From a virus: 64,000 nt of DNA. Made by a program: the position numbers and the translations under genes. This document shows, in pieces, positions 20,229 through 33,521 of the stretch. The DNA is taken from positions 32,001 to 96,000 of IMG/VR virus record IMGVR_UViG_3300021478_000015. One strand, written 5' to 3'. Position 1 is the stretch's first letter. Each line of letters starts with the position of its first letter. Under the pieces are notes generated by a model. It had not been told where the DNA came from, ran no database searches, and saw only the letters and a list, made by a program, of their open reading frames with translations.

Positions 20229-20356
20229 GAAAAACTCCTTGTTGTGGTGGTTGTTCCCACCCTACACGAAAAGGTGGTGTGTTGGCAAGTCGGCTTAGAG
20301 AGACTCCGGGTCGAGAGGGTCCCTGTCCAGAGGGGATGCAGGACCCCGAAGGGGTG

Positions 20357-20629
20357 ATGAGGGATCGGCGCTACCGAGGAGGTGATCAGTCCTGGAAGAG
20401 AAAGGGTGCTTGCGCGGGTGACCCTCTAGCCACTGATTTGCTCTTCGCCACCGAACTCAAGGACCAGGCCGCCGCAGCCAAGCGGTGGTGCAGCGAGTGC
20501 CCGGTCCGGCGGGAATGCCTGGACTACGCCATCTCCCACCATGAGGTATTCGGGGTCTGGGGTGGAGTCATCGAGAGCAGACGGCGTAATCGGCGCTGGC
20601 AGACCAGCATGCGGAGCTTGGCCTCATGA
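20357..20629 (+). CDS. whiB: WhiB-family Fe-S transcription factor
   Basis: W...GAC..D...F, AKRWCSECPVRRECLDYA, GVWGG. Confidence 0.9.
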   Translation: MRDRRYRGGDQSWKRKGACAGDPLATDLLFATELKDQAAAAKRWCSECPVRRECLDYAISHHEVFGVWGGVIESRRRNRRWQTSMRSLAS

Positions 20630-21036
20630 CCCACCTCCGCCAGGCCTGGGCCAAGCTGGTGATGGCGGCCGAGGAGGTTTACTACCACGGCACGGCCAAG
20701 GTGCCGTCCTGGCATCCCACCGAGATCACCCCGCAGACCGGGCGCTACGGCAGGCCCACCTTCCCCCATGACACCGATCCGGACTACGCCTACGCCACCA
20801 AGGACCCCGAGGTGGCCTGGAACTACGCCGAGAAGGCCTGGCACAACACCACCGTGGGGCACCCCAGGGTGTTCAGGGTGAAGCCCCGAGGTCCCGTGGA
20901 GGATGATCCCCACCGGGATGAGCGCGGCGAGCTACGGGGCAACTGGGAGGGTGACATCCGCTCCCGGCACGGCTTCGACGTGGTGGGTGAGGAGCCCATG
21001 CCCGAGCACATGGGTGAACCGGAGGACTGGAAATGA
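20626..21036 (+). CDS. Arr-like ADP-ribosyltransferase
   Basis: YYHGT, YAYAT...A..YA, RVFRVKPRGPVEDDP, RS....VVGE follow the Arr (rifampin ART) motif order. Confidence 0.7.
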   Translation: MTHLRQAWAKLVMAAEEVYYHGTAKVPSWHPTEITPQTGRYGRPTFPHDTDPDYAYATKDPEVAWNYAEKAWHNTTVGHPRVFRVKPRGPVEDDPHRDERGELRGNWEGDIRSRHGFDVVGEEPMPEHMGEPEDWK

Positions 21037-22289
21037 ACCACCTCCGCCAGGCCTGGGGACGGCAGGTCGAGGCCTGGCGCGTCCCCGAGACCATCCGGGG
21101 ATATCCCCTGCCCGTTGGCGGCCAGTTCGCTCATACCCAGGACACCCTGGACCCCGACCTGTTCGACCACAACGAGAGGATGCATCCCTGGATCCGGGAC
21201 TCCCTCATTGACATCCTGGAGGCCTTCTGGCGGCCCCGCTACGGCGACTGGCACTCCTGGACCCGGATCTACCTGGCGGGCTCCCTGGCCAGCTACTGGT
21301 GGTCCACCTTGGACTTCGACACCCTGGTCGGCGTGGACACCCATCGCTTCGTCAGGGACCACCCTGAGTTCGGGGGCATGTCCGATCCCGAGATCTGCCA
21401 GGCCCTCACCCATGAGTTCATCCTGGAGCTTGACCCTCTGTTGAAGGATTGGAGCTTCCCGCCTGAGCCCAACCTGCACCGGCTCATGGACACCCTTAAT
21501 GGCCCGGATCCAACAGATGTGTATAAGTCGGTGCCTTACACATTGGTGACCGGTATTGGGCCGATGGAAATGACTTGGTACGTGAATCCTTCGGCCTATG
21601 ACATCCGGGTCATTAAGCCCTATGCCGCCTACGATGTCACCCAGGATCGCTGGGCTGTGCATCCTGACAAGATGTCTAAGACCTGGGGAGCCCATGCTCT
21701 GGGCAACGTCTTCTGGGAGCACTTGGCCGACGTGGCTGATCACATCAAGGCGGCCCTGGCCCTGCCGGAGCCCGAGCGCACCGCCCATTGTTTGTCCATC
21801 TACGACGCCATCCACGCTGCCCGTGGCAAGGCTTTCTCCCCGGCCGGGAAGGGCGTGACCGATCCCCGCTCTCTACAGTGGATCGTCCTCAATAGATGGG
21901 GTCTCCTTGGTCCCCTGGAGGTGGCTGCTCATCCTGGCCGGGAGATGGCTCACCTACCGCCCGCCCGAGCTTCCTCCTGGCGGGCTCTGGATCCCGGCTT
22001 TGAGGAGGGTGGTCACGGCTCCTGGCGTGAGCATCCGGCAGTGATCATTCCCGAGGGCGGTGCAGCCGGGCGTAAGCGGTATACCGTCCATGTCCATGGC
22101 AACCCGGTGGCCAGCCGGTCCACCCTGCGAGAGGCCAAGGAAGTGCTCGAAGCCGAGCACGGGCCGCTGCCCTGGAAGCGGGTCCGACCCAAGAAGCAAG
22201 AGGCCGAGCATTACTACTTCGGCCCCACCACCGAGTTCTCCGATCCGGGCGAGTATCACTACGTGGAGCATCTGCCGGAGAAAGAATGA
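21033..22289 (+). CDS. Pol-beta-superfamily nucleotidyltransferase-like protein with C-terminal extra module
   Basis: LDPDLF, LAGSLASY.W..LDFDTL (GS..DxD), YVN, AAYDV..DRW...P. Confidence 0.7.
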   Translation: MNHLRQAWGRQVEAWRVPETIRGYPLPVGGQFAHTQDTLDPDLFDHNERMHPWIRDSLIDILEAFWRPRYGDWHSWTRIYLAGSLASYWWSTLDFDTLVGVDTHRFVRDHPEFGGMSDPEICQALTHEFILELDPLLKDWSFPPEPNLHRLMDTLNGPDPTDVYKSVPYTLVTGIGPMEMTWYVNPSAYDIRVIKPYAAYDVTQDRWAVHPDKMSKTWGAHALGNVFWEHLADVADHIKAALALPEPERTAHCLSIYDAIHAARGKAFSPAGKGVTDPRSLQWIVLNRWGLLGPLEVAAHPGREMAHLPPARASSWRALDPGFEEGGHGSWREHPAVIIPEGGAAGRKRYTVHVHGNPVASRSTLREAKEVLEAEHGPLPWKRVRPKKQEAEHYYFGPTTEFSDPGEYHYVEHLPEKE

Positions 22290-22576
22290 CCGCTGAAGAT
22301 CCACCTCGACCGGAGCTTCGAGAGGTGAAGTGGATCTTCCCCAAGGATCTCGAAGATGGTCAAGCCATCTTTATTCATGTACAAGGGTTTGCTATATGTC
22401 CGTACTTCGACTATCACGGTGATGGACTCGGAAGCTTCGGTAGTCACTTCTATCAAGGAAGAGTCCAGCGAATCGTAGATGAGAATGGTGATCTCATCGC
22501 AGTACAGATAGGGATGTATGTAGTCCCTGATTTCCTACTCGATCATCCCAGAGTGACGGCGCTGATCGAGCAATGA
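22286..22576 (+). CDS. Hypothetical protein (AT-rich)
   Basis: ATGA-coupled ORF. Confidence 0.5.
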   Translation: MTAEDPPRPELREVKWIFPKDLEDGQAIFIHVQGFAICPYFDYHGDGLGSFGSHFYQGRVQRIVDENGDLIAVQIGMYVVPDFLLDHPRVTALIEQ

Positions 22577-22601: not shown

Positions 22602-22889
22602 ATGCCCAGAGGAGTATGCTTCGTAACAGAACGTCATAAGGCCGGGATGCTATGGGTGACCGGAGACCCACCAAAGCCTGACGACGCGGTGCTGTACGCC
22701 GAGACTGAGAAGGCCTTCGAGTACGTGGACTGGCAGGTCCTGGTCATCTTCGAGAGCATCCACGGCGGGGACGTGGCCCACGCCGCCGAGCGCCTGGTCA
22801 AGCGTTACGGAGGCAAGACCGTGTCCTACTCGGTTGTCTTAGATCCGGAGGAGGCCGAGAGCCTGGTTGAGCAAGCACTCTTACATTAG
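22602..22889 (+). CDS. Hypothetical protein
   Basis: AAGGGA SD-like upstream; fills operon gap. Confidence 0.55.
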   Translation: MPRGVCFVTERHKAGMLWVTGDPPKPDDAVLYAETEKAFEYVDWQVLVIFESIHGGDVAHAAERLVKRYGGKTVSYSVVLDPEEAESLVEQALLH

Positions 22890-26500: not shown

Positions 26501-26613
26501 TCGGAGCGGCTCAGCCCACTGATCTCAACAACCCGGAGGCTCCTGAGGGCAAGCAGGCCGCTCTCAGGGCCATGCAGAGACGCATCCGTCACAACATGGG
26601 AGCACGGCGATGA
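23521..26613 (+). CDS. 1030-aa modular, low-complexity head-region protein
   Basis: Long ORF with GC-rich codon usage in the operon leading to the portal; acidic and Pro-rich linkers. Confidence 0.75.
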   Translation: MRSGRMTLQGFEVQAAKPKGERASEDEPAQQPIRPGEKSPADRRNLTNDERTVKRRRRRVHAAYSAPGYYLVDKDATPQSERFETVSEAEAQLEPDSGQLIQYLDQAPNSSHVAEPFPPNLNQVNGSLRMSAHTDDEFLFVAADADGDSDEDMDTQDEGMDDKTAALSDDRINDAYERHLQWSKANGHNDPDTVSALRAHERSGGITRAEANGVADLQGIGGGDSDWRSQGHRDEPWPVKEGQLLAAMAKATGPEQQRLMGELEGLRREARQKVLADREIDLADAYIHDTLTPVRVHEHHTAATDWIEDVAEPDLSAQAVHQAMVVEAQEWRRSVSAAVRQDREEYLEQARGRARITASAMGPHREMAFQTFMRTAVEEDQDQQGPASMIQPWAMPPMPLPPTGGGDAPFGIPSGNAPLNGQNFNPMATEVYPGSQILPLDNGASAWPPADNLEGEEPLPPVAPDNYNAVGAETHMSSRREAASDYSPRSGMGGRGGDKPFKATHTYSPIGWDAFDARPHPGSKSITPGVPVQNHGYMSPRGPGGMRLVHVSDESGNHQTIDSRSLGKLSRGDDAFDREQDQDILERNEERRQPYDWDPQRRESGGSIFESNRRQAGYSDEFPHRRHMETQHPGYSGDDGGDPEAAHRQLHGGDWSTPATDGDSIMSAHPDLAEHEKYPGLYDLSTDLGRRFLSSQNFNGPKQTYQEYVSRLSEGSTPMDQEHWAGSMAAVTPAPSNTSIPVTSMMRWGERGTNPDPTGADLAGNPMAGYPEGGNWDKDEAHAQSGEAQSNLPLAPEGPMVAEHLDYITDFPDTGPAEVPSDRAWNIDANQSAAGHDSGVTHGAAASTYDTYHDTPYDDDTLGESQYMSEVPHDFESGGGSQYCRHCGEARRHPMHVYAARMAAGKPPLEPDRSNYATTPGGEAQSTEQYEQAYSSGRNIDYSETGIGQLGTVPVQGYGVTPNGEMFPWQVPPGPGPVGAADVADVPPPGAGQVGAAQPTDLNNPEAPEGKQAALRAMQRRIRHNMGARR

Positions 26614-29600
26614 CTGACCTTTGGACCATGGCCGGAGAAGAGGCGGAGCGTGACGCCGCCGCTCACAAGCTGGCCCTGGCTCGGGTGGCCTGCGCCAACT
26701 ACTGGCCTGTCCTGGCATCAGCCGGGACCAAGGACGAGTATGAGCACGCCAAGGCCCTGATCTCCGATGGGGTCACCACCTCGGTGGCCTCAGTGGCCGT
26801 CTCTCCGGCCGACCAGGCCATCCTGGCCTCACGGGTCCTCGACAGCTTTGATGAGGACTGGGATGCCCACCAGGCCGCTCGCACCGCCGTGGTCGAGGAC
26901 GCTCCCGGTTATGGCCAGCAGATGGGCTTTGGCTTCCCGGCCGAGCCGCTGCCCAACGAGGCTCCCGAGCTAGAGAACGAGATCGCGGGTTGGGAGGGCT
27001 CCGACCGCGAGCAACGGGTGAACATGGGCAACGGCATCGGGGTGGCCGACGACTCCTCTGGCCCCAACGTGGAAGGCCCCGGCCAGAACCAGGGTGAGGA
27101 TCCCTTGCTGCACGCCAGCGCCCTGGACATCGAGGCCGGGCTGGAGCCGGGCGACTATCGCCTGGACGCCTTCGGAGCCCTTATCCCGGTAGAGGCAGCC
27201 GCTAACTACGATTCCCAGTGCCCTCTCTGTGATGAGAGAATCCATTCAAAGGACTATGCCTTTGATGAGGATAGTAATGGTGCGAGTGTCACCCATCCTG
27301 GAGTGATCCATAGTCGTCCTTCAGGTCATCCTGACCTTGAGAAGGCCAAGACTCCGATCATGAAGAGGAGGAAGACCTCGGTCTTTCACACTGCCCCCGG
27401 CGGAGGAGAGCACGCCCCGTACTACGTCCGGCGCGAGGGTGACAAGTACAAGGTGGTCAACCGCAATGGTGACGTGAAGGGCACCTTTAACACCAAGGAG
27501 GAGGCCCGTTCCCAGCAAAAGGCTCTCTACGCCAATGTGCCAGGGGCCAGTGAGGAGGCTGAGAAGCGCCACGGCGAAACCCCAAAAGCAGTGGAGGAGG
27601 AAGGTAAGAAAGCCTCCCTCCAACTGACTGCTCTGCAGCGCCAGGCCATTCAGGTGGCCCGCAACATGGTCGATCAGATGCCCGCCGGGGTAGAGCACCA
27701 CGCCGTGGCCAAAGCCATGTACATGCGGGCCAAGGGATTTGACCTGGATGAGGCCGAGACCGATCTGGTGATCAATGCTGCTCTAGAGAGGATCAATGAG
27801 CGCCTGGATTTTACCAAAGAGGGGGCCTATGACAACCTAGCTGGTGACCTCCATCGCATGAACCATGGAGACCGGTCGCGTTATGAGAGCGAAGGCCATG
27901 CCTTCGAGGTCTCCTACCACGAACGTCCGGCGTATGGCGATATGGGTCAGCCGGTACCCAAGAGTGACAAGTACTCGGGTACGACTGGTGAGTACACCCT
28001 GTACCACCCCCACGGTCAGGCCCAGGAGTTTCATGTAGGACCGTCTGTGCATGCCAAGGGTTACCAGGCCGAGAAGGTTCGGGACACCATGATGGACACT
28101 TGGTCTCGCAAGAAGATGGATCGGCTTATGAGCCAGGGCAATCTTCACACCGCCGATGGCGTCTCCGAGGAGAAGCGGGATCGAGCCGAGTCATCCGGTG
28201 ACACCCTGCCTGGCACCGACAAGTTCCCGATCACCAACAAGACCGATCTGGAGAATGCCAAGCACGATATCGGCCGCACCAATGAGCCCCATGACAAGGT
28301 GGTCAACTACATCAACCGCAAGGCTGATGAGCTAGGGGCTCCCAAGGTTGGTGAGGAGAAGACCTCCCGGATGCGCCGATTGTGGGCCAAGGTGACCGGG
28401 CGTCGTATCACTGCGGTGAACATCCACCACTTTGATAGCTCTGGTGGCAGCTACGACCGTACCCAGACCGATGACAGCATCAAGGACGGGGATGTGTTCC
28501 ACATTCCCAGCGAGAAGATCACCGGCTATATGCACGCGGCGTGGCCGGTGGCGGTCACCGAGAGCAAGGGTCAGTTTCACGGGTTGACCGATCCTCATCG
28601 GCCGCCTGCAGGAGAGGAGGACAGGACCTGTCCCTCCTGTGGGGGCTCAGGGCAAGCCGAGTCCACCGCCAATGCCCCTTACCGCAAGCCGGGTGACACC
28701 ACCTGCTGGGGCTGTGGAGGCAAGGGCTACTACCCCGGTGATCCGCCGGAGCGGGTGGCCCAATGGCACGAAGGCTGGAGTCAAGCTCGGGACCTGGCCC
28801 AGCAGAAGGGCTATCCCCTCGACAGTGGCACCCATGAGGCGTCGCGCCGGACCGCCCAGGGCGACATGAGCAATCCCATGGATCCCTCCTCGACGGGCAA
28901 TCCATTTTCCCCGGCTCAGGATGTCAACTCGGCCATGACCGACCAGAACCCCACCATGGGGGCGGGGGCCGGAGCGGGCGGGGCCATGAGCCCCAACACC
29001 GCTCCGCCCGACGAGATCCCTGGCCAGACCCAGCCTGGCTCAGCCACCGGCACGGCGGCCTCCTCGAAGCCCCGGACCAAGCCGTCCGAGAACCCCAACG
29101 CTCCGAACAAGCCAAGGCCGATGCAGCCACAGGGTATGCCCATGACCATGCCCGGCCAGATGATGACCGGCATGCCCATGATGGGTGTCAGGGTGCCGAC
29201 ACCGCCGGATCACAAGCGTCATATTCAGTGGCTCATGCATCAGTACGCCTTGAACCCTGATGAAGCCGAAGAAGAGGCGCAACGGCGATACCAAAGCTAT
29301 CCCGATACCCAGAAGCAGTGGGGGGCTAAGCCTGAGGATATCAGTACGGGTCCCAATCGTGATTTCACCAATCCGATCTCTGATCAGAATGAGAAGTATG
29401 GACCGAAGGTTTCCAGTAAGGCTCAGGTGATCATTGCAGAGTCGATCCTGGAGAACAACCCCGATCTCAGTGATGAGGAAGCTCTGCATCTGGCGATCAA
29501 GACCATCGAGCGTTATCCCCATGTGGTCAAGGAGGCCTACGGAGGGTCCGACTACCCTTTTGACTCAGCGACCGGGGGTTACAGCGTCTGCAGCCAATGC

Positions 29601-29747
29601 GGAGTTGAGGCCTTTGACAGCCGCACCGGTCACTGCCACAACTGCGGCTATGTCGCCGGGGCCGGGAGGGTCGGCTTCGACCCTCTGGTAGGCCCCACCA
29701 CCATCCGGCCGGGGCGGGCTGACCTTCGTAACCCTGGACTCAGGTAA
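26610..29747 (+). CDS. 1045-aa modular head-region protein
   Basis: ATGA-coupled; small modules strung together (PYYVRREGDKYKVV..ALYAN; FPITNKTDLENA...GR; IKDGDV..AWPVAVT; Zn ribbons). Confidence 0.75.
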   Translation: MTDLWTMAGEEAERDAAAHKLALARVACANYWPVLASAGTKDEYEHAKALISDGVTTSVASVAVSPADQAILASRVLDSFDEDWDAHQAARTAVVEDAPGYGQQMGFGFPAEPLPNEAPELENEIAGWEGSDREQRVNMGNGIGVADDSSGPNVEGPGQNQGEDPLLHASALDIEAGLEPGDYRLDAFGALIPVEAAANYDSQCPLCDERIHSKDYAFDEDSNGASVTHPGVIHSRPSGHPDLEKAKTPIMKRRKTSVFHTAPGGGEHAPYYVRREGDKYKVVNRNGDVKGTFNTKEEARSQQKALYANVPGASEEAEKRHGETPKAVEEEGKKASLQLTALQRQAIQVARNMVDQMPAGVEHHAVAKAMYMRAKGFDLDEAETDLVINAALERINERLDFTKEGAYDNLAGDLHRMNHGDRSRYESEGHAFEVSYHERPAYGDMGQPVPKSDKYSGTTGEYTLYHPHGQAQEFHVGPSVHAKGYQAEKVRDTMMDTWSRKKMDRLMSQGNLHTADGVSEEKRDRAESSGDTLPGTDKFPITNKTDLENAKHDIGRTNEPHDKVVNYINRKADELGAPKVGEEKTSRMRRLWAKVTGRRITAVNIHHFDSSGGSYDRTQTDDSIKDGDVFHIPSEKITGYMHAAWPVAVTESKGQFHGLTDPHRPPAGEEDRTCPSCGGSGQAESTANAPYRKPGDTTCWGCGGKGYYPGDPPERVAQWHEGWSQARDLAQQKGYPLDSGTHEASRRTAQGDMSNPMDPSSTGNPFSPAQDVNSAMTDQNPTMGAGAGAGGAMSPNTAPPDEIPGQTQPGSATGTAASSKPRTKPSENPNAPNKPRPMQPQGMPMTMPGQMMTGMPMMGVRVPTPPDHKRHIQWLMHQYALNPDEAEEEAQRRYQSYPDTQKQWGAKPEDISTGPNRDFTNPISDQNEKYGPKVSSKAQVIIAESILENNPDLSDEEALHLAIKTIERYPHVVKEAYGGSDYPFDSATGGYSVCSQCGVEAFDSRTGHCHNCGYVAGAGRVGFDPLVGPTTIRPGRADLRNPGLR

Positions 29748-31011: not shown

Positions 31012-31353
31012 ATGACCGTGCCGGTTTTGATTCAGCAGTATACGGCCAATATCTACCCGAACGCGGGCTCAGCTTATTCGTCTGAGCATGAATGTGAAGG
31101 ATCGAAGTTTCATTCCCCTAATCCGCTACTGGTCCATGAGGTAGATCTTGTTCCCTGGGATGGTCATCCGACATCACATACCGCTTGGCTGTGCGGAACC
31201 TGCCGCGGAAATCTGTGGGTCTACCAGAAGATCCTCTATGAGCGTAAAGGCGACATCCCCTGGGATGTGCAGCGCTCCTTCGGCAATGGGATCCGAGCCT
31301 TGGCCAAGCGAGGTTGGGCCTTCTATACCAGCTACCTGGCAGGTTTGAGATGA
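31012..31353 (+). CDS. Hypothetical protein
   Basis: ORF between Zn-ribbon gene and portal; LCGTC. Confidence 0.6.
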   Translation: MTVPVLIQQYTANIYPNAGSAYSSEHECEGSKFHSPNPLLVHEVDLVPWDGHPTSHTAWLCGTCRGNLWVYQKILYERKGDIPWDVQRSFGNGIRALAKRGWAFYTSYLAGLR

Positions 31354-33521
31354 GTTCGTTCTGGACACCGACCGGTGAGCACCCCATACCTAACGAGCGT
31401 GACACCGATGTCCTGGGCAGGTTGGCCGCGGCCTCCCTGCGCCGGGGCGTGGCCGATGGTCCAGGGGAGGAGTCCCCTGAGGTCCAGGAGATGCGGAAGA
31501 ACCGCCGGGTCAACCGCCGTCTGAACGGGATCAGTCGGACGGCCGATCTCATGTCGGGCTCGGGGGCCTCGTCCCTGTCGTTTGCCACCGGGCGTCCACA
31601 GGACCCCATGTTCTATTGGAAGCAGGCCAACCTTCCCTATGACATCTGGAAGGAAGAGGAGCTTGTAGTCATCCGGCATTACTGTCGGTTGCTCTACCTC
31701 ACGCATCCACTGCTGGCCTCAGCCATTGATATCTTCAGCAAATACCCCATGCAAGGCATGGAGCTAGCCTGCAAGGACAACGAGCTTGTTGACTTCTATA
31801 GCACACACTTCTTGGAGGATCTGAACTACCCAGAGTATCTGACCGATGTCTTGCATGAGCGTTGGCTGGTAGGAGAAGCGTGGCCATTAGGGCAATGGAA
31901 TGACACCCTGGGTATCTGGGAGGACGACGAGCTAATCAACCCCGATGACGTGGATGTCATCAAGAGCCCGTTCATCAAAGAGCCCCGCTTCGAGATGCGC
32001 CTGCCGGAGTCCCTCCGCAAGATCCTGAAGGAGCGCCAGCCCGAGTGGGAGTACAAGAAGCTGGTCAACGCCTACCCCGAGCTTCTGGCCTTCCTGGCCG
32101 ACGACGCCCGCATGCCGGTGTCCAACATCCTGCTCAAGCAGATCAAGTTCAAGGCCGACACCTTCCATCCCCGCGGCGTGCCCATCCTGATGCGAGGCTT
32201 CCGGGCCGTCTTCCAGGAGGAGATGCTGAACGCGGCCCAGGACGCCATCGCCTCCCGGCTGTACACCCCGCTCATCCTGGCCAAGATCGGAGCCTCGGCT
32301 ACTGATCTGGGCACCCAGTACCCCTTCATCCCCACCTCGGCCGACCTGGCCGACTTCGAGGAGGCCCTGGACGAGGCTCTGGCCGCCGACTTCCGGGTGT
32401 TGACCCACCACTTCGCCCTGACCATGGAGTCGGTGTTCGGCCGCGAGGTCATGCCCGATCTCAGCGGGGACTTCGATCGCCTGGCCGAGCGCCAGCTACA
32501 GGTCTTCGGCATCTCCAAGACCATGCTATCCGGAGCCCAGAATGGTGAGACCTACGCTGCTGACGCCTTGAACCTGGACATCATGAGTCAGCTATTGGGC
32601 GGGGCACAACGGCTGATAAAGAGATTCTTCAAAGAGCGAGCATTGGTGGTAGCCGAAGCTCAGCAGCACTGGGATTACGAGATAAGAGGTGGCAAGAAGT
32701 ACCCGGTGATGGAGGAGGTCCTCGAAGTGGATGAGGAGACCGGTGAGAAGCGCATCATCGAGCAGCCCAAGCTGTTGGTGCCTGATCTGGTCCTCAAGTC
32801 CATGGACATGAAGAACGACACTCTGCGCCGCCAGCTACTCGAAGAGCTACGCAGCACCGGGGTGCCCATTTCCATGAAGACCCGACTTACCAACATCGAC
32901 ATCGATCTGGACGACGAGATCGAGCAAACCCGCGACGAGCAGATCAAGATCGCGGTGGCCACCCAAGAGACCCGCCGGGACACCTTCTCCGCCCTCACCG
33001 CCCAGGGCCTGCCTATCCCCGAGGACCTGGAGACCGACTTCCGGGCCAAGGCCATCGACGCTGAGGAAGGCGGTCCAGCGGCCGAGCAGTTACCCCCGCC
33101 CAACATGGCCATGGATCCCGCCGGAGGAGCCCCCACTGCTCTGGTCCCTGGTCCCGAGGACTATGCCATGGCTGACCAGGCCGAGGAGGAAGGTGGGCTG
33201 CCACCTGACACCGGAGCCGCCACCGGGGCAGTACCACCGAGCCCGCCTCTAGCCACCATCATCCCCCTGCCGCGCCAGCGCATGCGCCCTGAGGAGTCCG
33301 ACGAGCGCCGAGGGGACATGCCCAAGCGATCTGCCCTCTTCAACAGCGATGACATCGTCTTCGATCCCTGGGTGGCCAAGGCGGTCATCAGGGGTGACGA
33401 CGGCGAGGACCATGAAGAGGGTGCCCACCGGCTGATCACCGGCCCGGCTCACATCGGCATGCGCCGCTACGTCCGCCTCGATCCCACCGAGCCCCTGCCG
33501 GACGCTGAATCAGAGCGATGA
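31350..33521 (+). CDS. Portal protein
   Basis: CRLLYLTHPLL...IDIFSKYP, W.VGEA, LINPDDV, RGVPILMRGFR, PLILAK.G; size and acidic tail fit large actinophage portals. Confidence 0.8.
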   Translation: MSSFWTPTGEHPIPNERDTDVLGRLAAASLRRGVADGPGEESPEVQEMRKNRRVNRRLNGISRTADLMSGSGASSLSFATGRPQDPMFYWKQANLPYDIWKEEELVVIRHYCRLLYLTHPLLASAIDIFSKYPMQGMELACKDNELVDFYSTHFLEDLNYPEYLTDVLHERWLVGEAWPLGQWNDTLGIWEDDELINPDDVDVIKSPFIKEPRFEMRLPESLRKILKERQPEWEYKKLVNAYPELLAFLADDARMPVSNILLKQIKFKADTFHPRGVPILMRGFRAVFQEEMLNAAQDAIASRLYTPLILAKIGASATDLGTQYPFIPTSADLADFEEALDEALAADFRVLTHHFALTMESVFGREVMPDLSGDFDRLAERQLQVFGISKTMLSGAQNGETYAADALNLDIMSQLLGGAQRLIKRFFKERALVVAEAQQHWDYEIRGGKKYPVMEEVLEVDEETGEKRIIEQPKLLVPDLVLKSMDMKNDTLRRQLLEELRSTGVPISMKTRLTNIDIDLDDEIEQTRDEQIKIAVATQETRRDTFSALTAQGLPIPEDLETDFRAKAIDAEEGGPAAEQLPPPNMAMDPAGGAPTALVPGPEDYAMADQAEEEGGLPPDTGAATGAVPPSPPLATIIPLPRQRMRPEESDERRGDMPKRSALFNSDDIVFDPWVAKAVIRGDDGEDHEEGAHRLITGPAHIGMRRYVRLDPTEPLPDAESER

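Follow-up and report, generated by a model that had tools for sequence, protein, structure and literature searches.

Two adjacent and otherwise unrelated enzyme genes of a virus begin with almost the same 25 nucleotides, and this repeat appears to encode the start of a portable amphipathic N-terminal helix of 12-14 residues, here called the leader, which is conserved as a peptide among related phages and may function as an address or docking tag. The genes lie within a window of 64,000 nucleotides that comprises positions 32001-96000 of the 156,983-bp IMG/VR virus record IMGVR_UViG_3300021478_000015, which is rated complete. Gene 1 encodes an Arr-like ADP-ribosyltransferase, and gene 2, which follows it, encodes a probable Pol-beta-type nucleotidyltransferase.

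A 25-nt repeat forms the first codons of two unrelated enzyme genes

The elements that make up the repeat and the leader have the following window positions.

20626-20650, + strand: repeat copy 1, codons 1-8 of the Arr-like gene, including a 10-nt palindrome at 20640-20649 (repeat scan)
21033-21057, + strand: repeat copy 2, codons 1-8 of the nucleotidyltransferase-like gene (repeat scan)
20626-20661, + strand: leader on the Arr-like protein, residues 1-12 (sequence, and alignment with leaderless relatives)
21033-21074, + strand: leader of gene 2, residues 1-14 (conserved H, L and W; predicted helix at residues 2-15 with a predicted local distance difference test score, pLDDT, of ~65)

The original prediction, which was made from the sequence, had stated that the two genes start with 24 of 25 identical nucleotides. 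This was confirmed at 20626 and 21033, where the copies encode both of the peptides that had been quoted, and the sole mismatch was found in codon 2 (ACC/AAC). The two copies belong to the open reading frames (ORFs) 20626-21036 (136 aa) and 21033-22289 (418 aa), each of which overlaps the preceding stop codon with its start as ATGA and has a Shine-Dalgarno-like GGAG or GGAGGA, as read from the sequence, 6-9 nt upstream. No further copy with up to 3 mismatches was found in the window (0 matches in 100 shuffles), and the 19-nt core occurs in the whole record only at these two sites, plus one 2-mismatch match on the opposite strand. Agreement of all five synonymous codon choices by independent draws from the genome's codon usage would have a p-value of ~0.013. 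Both copies also contain the perfect 10-nt palindrome CCAGGCCTGG (20640-20649 and 21047-21056).

The leader is conserved as a peptide

The consensus of the leader is M-x-H-L-R-x-x-W-x-[RK]-x-[VI]-x-A, the first 8 residues of which are covered by the repeat. The leader was found in 30 of 55 gene 2 homologues, which begin with M-x(1-3)-H-L-x-x-x-W followed by a basic residue, V/I and A, down to an identity of ~37%; the H, L and W are invariant across these 30 proteins. Nucleotidyltransferase copies that are embedded in larger proteins are without it. Judged by this distribution, it is the clade of stand-alone nucleotidyltransferases to which the leader is native. The leader codons vary among genomes, with all four CTN leucine codons in use, and neither the bases of the repeat nor the palindrome are kept in the related genomes L004, L005, L008 and L009, whereas the amino acids are. 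Because the codons differ between genomes while the residues stay, we conclude from the alignments that selection acts on the leader peptide and not on the DNA. The shared tag that had been proposed from two genes can thus be described as a peptide leader conserved at the protein level over deep divergence, and not as a one-off duplication, although it is absent from the more distant Arr orthologues considered below.

Within one genome, the leaders of adjacent genes are near-identical in DNA (24/25 nt in the window, and 15/16 nt in the second half of the leaders in L005, as judged by eye). Since neighbouring leaders share such patches, this points to local duplication or short-patch conversion as the reason for their likeness.

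The leader on the Arr-like protein, by comparison with its relatives, looks bolted onto what seems to be the original Arr start codon, because an in-frame ATG follows directly after it at 20662 and the residues beyond resemble the N-termini of leaderless Arr relatives. It is present in just four Arr sequences, which are near-identical. In two of these four, Ile stands in place of the internal Met, so that translation must start at the leader there, and both of these sequences lie on contigs with a diverged nucleotidyltransferase leader. Moreover, Arr residues 9-14, which are outside the 25-nt repeat, score 11.7 bits against a matrix derived from the nucleotidyltransferase leaders of other genomes, a score reached by 0 of 20,000 random 6-mers. 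In the AlphaFold2 (AF2) models of both proteins, the leader helix is placed outside the catalytic fold with low confidence; in gene 1 it is predicted, likewise with low confidence, for residues 3-15.

Several other peptides were considered in relation to the leader. The original prediction had pointed to similar strings in two head-region proteins, and neither of these was retained. PHLRKTA, at the start of the 1476-aa protein encoded from 33534, shares only H-L-R with the leader and has no Trp; in the closest available orthologue, with 83% identity just downstream, this start of the protein is not conserved. The string RMRRLWAKV in the 1045-aa protein encoded by 26610-29747 is internal, near residue 589. 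A role of the leader as an inter-module spacer of polyvalent proteins was rejected as well, with zero internal matches in ~109,000 residues: with a 12-column matrix and a threshold of at least 12 bits, none were found in ~68,000 residues of large proteins and ~41,000 residues of the long ORFs of this genome. The junction peptide G-L-x-A-F-V-A-A of a 3116-aa polyprotein of this genome was also rejected, being a different motif.

Assignment of the two enzymes

The two proteins are divided as follows.

20626-21036, + strand: Arr-like ADP-ribosyltransferase, 136 aa, with catalytic-triad candidates H21, Y56 and D94 (Pfam, profile, AF2/Foldseek)
21102-21947, + strand: gene 2 core, residues 24-305, a Pol-beta-type nucleotidyltransferase-like domain followed by a helical domain (signature and weak fold matches)
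22020-22289, + strand: gene 2 C-terminal small alpha/beta domain, residues 330-418 (AF2 model)

The match of gene 1 to the Pfam family PF12120 (Arr-ms) is marginal (25.6 bits with a cut-off of 25). A profile of gene 1 and six relatives matches solved Arr structures with an E-value of 6e-5 and with the H/Y/D catalytic motifs aligned. H21, Y56 and D94 are invariant among 7 Arr relatives and align on the corresponding Arr catalytic motifs, which we take to be H19, Y49 and D84 in the Arr protein of M. smegmatis. The AF2 model of gene 1 has a pLDDT of 76, and its top Foldseek matches are 9iaf (E 3.5e-6) and 2hw2 (E 6e-6), with template modelling (TM) scores of 0.53-0.56; Arr structures were the only strong matches, the next being toxin ADP-ribosyltransferases with E-values of 0.03 or weaker. 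The proposed Arr-like nature of gene 1 is borne out by Pfam, profile and Foldseek alike, and at the level of sequence and model its fold and triad confirm it as an Arr-type ADP-ribosyltransferase.

For gene 2, the earlier assignment as a nucleotidyltransferase gained an invariant G-S...D-x-D signature and is nevertheless to be regarded as probable only, with weak fold matches and no Pfam match. Specifically, G83, S84, D94 and D96 are the same in all of 42 aligned homologues and correspond to the Pol-beta signature hG[GS]-x(9-13)-Dh[DE]h, while no Pfam family, PF01909 included, was matched at an E-value of 0.1 or better. The AF2 model (pLDDT of 83) shows a disordered linker (residues 311-328) that joins the core to the C-terminal domain. 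When residues 40-204 of this model were compared by VIA-align, Z values of 5.0-5.3 were obtained to the minimal nucleotidyltransferases HI0073, MNT and 1ylq, and Foldseek gave weak matches (E 0.2 or weaker) to GLD-2, TUTase, CD-NTase and ANT. Altogether, the weak fold matches are enriched for minimal nucleotidyltransferases, TUTases and CD-NTases. Look-alikes in the Atlas (TM 0.52-0.54) belong to viral clusters that partly carry PF01909, and they align only from residue 24. The gene was found to be single-copy in all five genomes searched, and many of its homologues, with a length of ~310-320 aa, are without the C-terminal domain.

Other carriers of the leader and a second module family

In related phages, the leader is likewise found at the start of further stand-alone enzymes of the effector type. 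In the related 37.6-kb contig L005, the equivalent of gene 2 is split within its linker, and the leader stands at the start of a GNAT-like gene of 246 aa as well as of the C-terminal domain that has been detached. A free-standing, leader-headed C-terminal domain is represented by L005 6682-7050 and by P0065, and was seen in one lineage only. The fused proteins P0059 and P0060 have five to six extra linker residues near residue 318, which match both edges of the split at L005:5928-6727. By sequence comparison, this suggests the footprint of a leader-bearing cassette that was inserted at that point and then lost.

A second, unrelated family of carriers was found by scanning IMG/VR with a degenerate DNA pattern. 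Three such scans yielded L008 and L009 (a complete 151.6-kb phage) as the only real extra carriers, the remainder being short ORFs or chance-like matches. The second-family protein has 325 aa, and its gene follows a terminase gene at a short distance; in L009, the gene directly after it codes for a larger protein with a nucleotidyltransferase domain, which is preceded by a ParB-like segment recognised by eye. An exhaustive HMMER search identified 482 relatives of this family. The leader heads the L008 and L009 proteins as well as six representatives of clusters at 50% identity, and it was counted in 8-13 of 97 small cluster representatives (expected 0.06-0.3), as opposed to 0 of 53 multidomain ones, which have ordinary linker sequence ahead of the domain. 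Four large carriers of the second-family domain that were checked also contain GNAT, 2H phosphoesterase, SprT, DUF7178, HipA-like or transglycosylase domains, and because of these accompanying domains we regard them as proteins of the polyvalent type.

Among cultured phages there was no DNA match and no match to the Arr-like protein; gene 2 and the second family gave only weak matches to hypothetical proteins. All relatives are metagenomic, and the leader was seen in no cultured phage.

The same modules occur inside head-associated proteins

All leader-bearing domains also have homologues that are embedded in head-associated, "polyvalent" multidomain proteins. A second Arr-like module (G000:C1:101883-102230, locus L116, beyond the right end of the window) is part of the 3116-aa head-protease polyprotein of this genome and matches the Arr profile with an E-value of 5e-11. 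The nucleotidyltransferase domain occurs inside larger proteins in L006, L009 and L132, and a ParB-like segment is discernible by eye in L006 as it is in L009. Likewise, the GNAT-like module of L005 has a match in the C-terminal part of a portal-adjacent minor capsid protein of Microbacterium phage Caron. The modules described for polyvalent proteins include H-Y-D ADP-ribosyltransferases, GNATs, Pol-beta nucleotidyltransferases and ParB-like domains, and solo versions of such domains among late genes have been suggested to be capsid cargo (PMC5512222). The occurrence of embedded homologues would fit with leader-bearing modules that are effectors delivered by the virion.

Genome setting and history of the locus

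The genome has a G+C content of 62% and encodes WhiB-like regulators, and for these reasons the host is presumably an actinobacterium. The gene for the large terminase is located at the left end of the window. A leftward gene block extends up to 20228 and a rightward block begins at ~20350, with the leader-bearing gene pair at the head of this rightward block, which leads via two 1000-aa proteins without known function into the portal gene (31314-33521), the gene for the 1476-aa multidomain protein and tail-fibre-like genes. A promoter-like site was searched for at the operon head and none was found. Two further features concern this region.

20354-20629, + strand: gene for a WhiB-like regulator (Pfam PF02467 at 4.6e-18, the match starting from residue 39 of a long ORF)
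20358-21046, + strand: 689-bp segment with the WhiB gene, the Arr-like gene and 14 nt from the start of gene 2, with a counterpart of only 38 bp in L004 and L005 (blastn of the window)

The true WhiB start is likely to be the GTG at 20354 or the ATG at 20357 rather than 20279. The part of the ORF upstream of 20357 appears to be shared leader DNA, because the DNA homology with L004 stops at 20357. In L004, which has no WhiB gene, the sequence homologous to the upstream 75 nt in the region 20279-20357 is the untranslated leader of gene 2. The stop codon of the WhiB gene is the one that overlaps the start of the Arr-like gene (ATGA). Downstream of gene 2, the genes 22286-22576 and 22602-22889 show ~76% DNA identity to L004, where similar ORFs are present; neither has a significant match to a Pfam or PHROG family. 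The DNA homology of the window with L004 and L005 picks up again only at ~23494.

The 689-bp difference may represent a gain or a loss, in either direction. In the 155-kb relative L006, the Arr-like sequence (L006:3300-5363) is the C-terminal domain of a 687-aa protein encoded immediately upstream of a gene with a nucleotidyltransferase domain; a match to GNAT was obtained for this protein too, and an HExxH motif and a ParB-like segment can be made out in it by eye. Because Arr-like sequence adjoins a nucleotidyltransferase in the distant relatives L132 and L006 too, gene order indicates that the pairing of Arr and nucleotidyltransferase predates the leader on Arr. We infer that the site upstream of the nucleotidyltransferase gene is a variable effector slot. 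In L006 itself (L006:5363-8671), the nucleotidyltransferase domain matches in two pieces that are ~180 codons apart, and an HNH-endonuclease-like ORF is located in another frame inside this gap (L006:6964-7548). The gap may thus be a mobile insertion of an intein- or intron-like type.

Possible functions of the leader

In the reading that we favour, the leader would be native to a nucleotidyltransferase-like gene that is conserved and single-copy in ~150-kb actinobacterial phages, in the form in which this gene stands alone, and also to the second, unrelated module family. In the lineage of the window, it would have been set in frame ahead of the original Arr start, either by local duplication or by recombination with the 5' end of the neighbouring gene, and short conversion patches would keep the adjacent copies alike. 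The leader may bring separately encoded effector modules to one common partner, which would most plausibly be the capsid during its assembly, in analogy to the capsid-targeting sequence (CTS) of phage T4, or alternatively the nucleotidyltransferase protein itself. It would thereby stand in for the covalent linkage of the same modules inside polyvalent head proteins, and the two enzymes would ADP-ribosylate and nucleotidylate their targets early in infection. That the leader functions as an address or docking tag is, in our judgement, evenly balanced. By analogy, a T4-like capsid-targeting role is plausible, and the capsid as the specific partner is put forward tentatively. It is with similar reserve that we propose the wider reading as a possibility, in which a lineage-specific tag of large actinobacterial phages carries separate effector enzymes, among them the ADP-ribosyltransferase, the nucleotidyltransferase and an acetyltransferase, into the capsid or to a hub protein that is packaged, with the free genes being interchangeable with polyvalent modules and the tag DNA serving as a recombination handle for new effector genes.

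Several observations weigh against an address tag. Arr relatives at 48-65% identity do not carry the leader, which is missing from the Arr orthologues beyond ~88% identity; a solo Arr immediately upstream of a gene with a nucleotidyltransferase domain (L132:7803-8231) is leaderless as well. The nucleotidyltransferase leader of L005 is degenerate, and no leader was seen at ~80 stand-alone nucleotidyltransferase loci that are more distantly related. A six-frame scan of the genome, while it returned the two neighbouring enzyme genes, revealed no further carriers, so that a genome-wide use of the tag was rejected; the other matches, including a small ORF near genome position 150, look off-frame or due to chance. 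There are only two carriers, though the genome encodes dozens of presumed cargo modules. No protease cut site is recognisable after the leader. Lastly, every carrier of known context other than the nucleotidyltransferase itself directly adjoins a nucleotidyltransferase gene, and this adjacency together with the near-identical DNA patches is the picture that a pure by-product of recombination would give too.

Such a by-product, in which the leader matters for the nucleotidyltransferase only, and genes that arrive upstream of it or split it inherit its ribosome-binding context, start and first codons with no function of the leader on Arr or the other carriers, seems to us somewhat unlikely. Besides the adjacency and the DNA patches, it would account for the apparent original Arr start codon just behind the leader, for the lack of a leader in most Arr relatives, and for the C-terminal-domain gene of L005, which obtains its start from the leader and the split edges of which recur as linker in P0059 and P0060. 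However, the second family keeps the leader across members that are only 26-55% identical, and in G004 the neighbouring nucleotidyltransferase has no leader that could be copied. Moreover, the Arr leader fits the profile beyond the duplicated 25 nt and is intact where the internal Met has been lost. The adjacency would be equally expected if the leader were a recognition peptide, i.e. a site that is recognised, modified or processed by a co-encoded enzyme, in the manner of the leaders of ribosomally synthesized and post-translationally modified peptides. This enzyme could be the adjacent nucleotidyltransferase, as MNT AMPylates HEPN, or the head protease. The invariant His and the conserved Arg of the leader would be consistent with this, as would the presence of partner-modifying minimal nucleotidyltransferases among the weak structural matches of gene 2. 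Yet the synteny of a variable locus explains the adjacency equally well, since the second-family gene and the leaderless Arr of L132 also adjoin the nucleotidyltransferase gene, and the leader has no conserved Tyr, Ser or Thr as an acceptor. We therefore consider a recognition peptide quite improbable. More improbable by far is a nucleic-acid element, i.e. an operator, a recombination site or a translational control element with the palindrome as its possible core. The nucleotide identity above the prediction from codon bias and the presence of the palindrome in both copies would speak for it, but the synonymous variation in L004, L005, L008 and L009, where the amino acids outlast the bases, largely refutes this view, and the genome contains no further copy of the repeat.

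As an address tag, the leader would be a signal for the loading of cargo in a group of phages that is not related to T4. It would then join the T4 CTS and the polyvalent proteins in one picture, in which effector modules can exit and re-enter the fused state. With its sequence as a guide, one could then search uncultured actinophages for effectors that are delivered by the virion and, in laboratory phages, load foreign proteins into such capsids. Even if it is a mere recombination scar, the locus still illustrates the acquisition of new genes at a fixed junction, where the translation start of a neighbour is re-used.

Comparison with known systems

Gene 1 resembles the known Arr proteins (PF12120; 2hw2, 9iaf) in its fold and in its H-Y-D catalytic positions. 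It differs from them in being only 24-28% identical over the Foldseek alignments, in being phage-encoded with an extra N-terminal leader, and in having relatives inside head polyproteins; its substrate should not be taken to be rifampin. Gene 2 shares with the minimal Pol-beta nucleotidyltransferases (MNT of HEPN-MNT, HI0073; PF01909) the G-S...D-x-D signature, and it matches them weakly in structure over residues 40-204. Unlike these, it is much larger, has helical and extra C-terminal domains, lacks both a Pfam match at an E-value of 0.1 and a HEPN partner, and its third carboxylate was not identified.

Polyvalent proteins (Iyer, Burroughs, Anand, de Souza and Aravind 2017, PMC5512222) contain the same kinds of modules, namely H-Y-D ADP-ribosyltransferase, GNAT, Pol-beta nucleotidyltransferase, ParB-like and metallopeptidase modules, which are fused or split near terminase and portal genes. 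In contrast to the present locus, no common N-terminal leader on the solo versions is described in PMC5512222, and the leader is never a spacer between modules here.

The internal proteins of T4 are diverse, and their only common feature is a CTS (PMC3012670). The leader has no sequence similarity to the CTS of IPI-III; no recognisable protease cut site follows it, and there are only 1-3 carriers per genome. Furthermore, the phage is a high-GC one with a presumably actinobacterial host, and its head protease is fused to a polyprotein. The likeness to the CTS lies in the fact that a short N-terminal peptide is the sole common part of unrelated neighbouring accessory proteins, the genes of which are located in a variable locus where a common 5' end can also drive recombination. 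In the phages described here, such a peptide is found on two genes of the window, on two to three genes of L005, and on the second family in L008 and L009.

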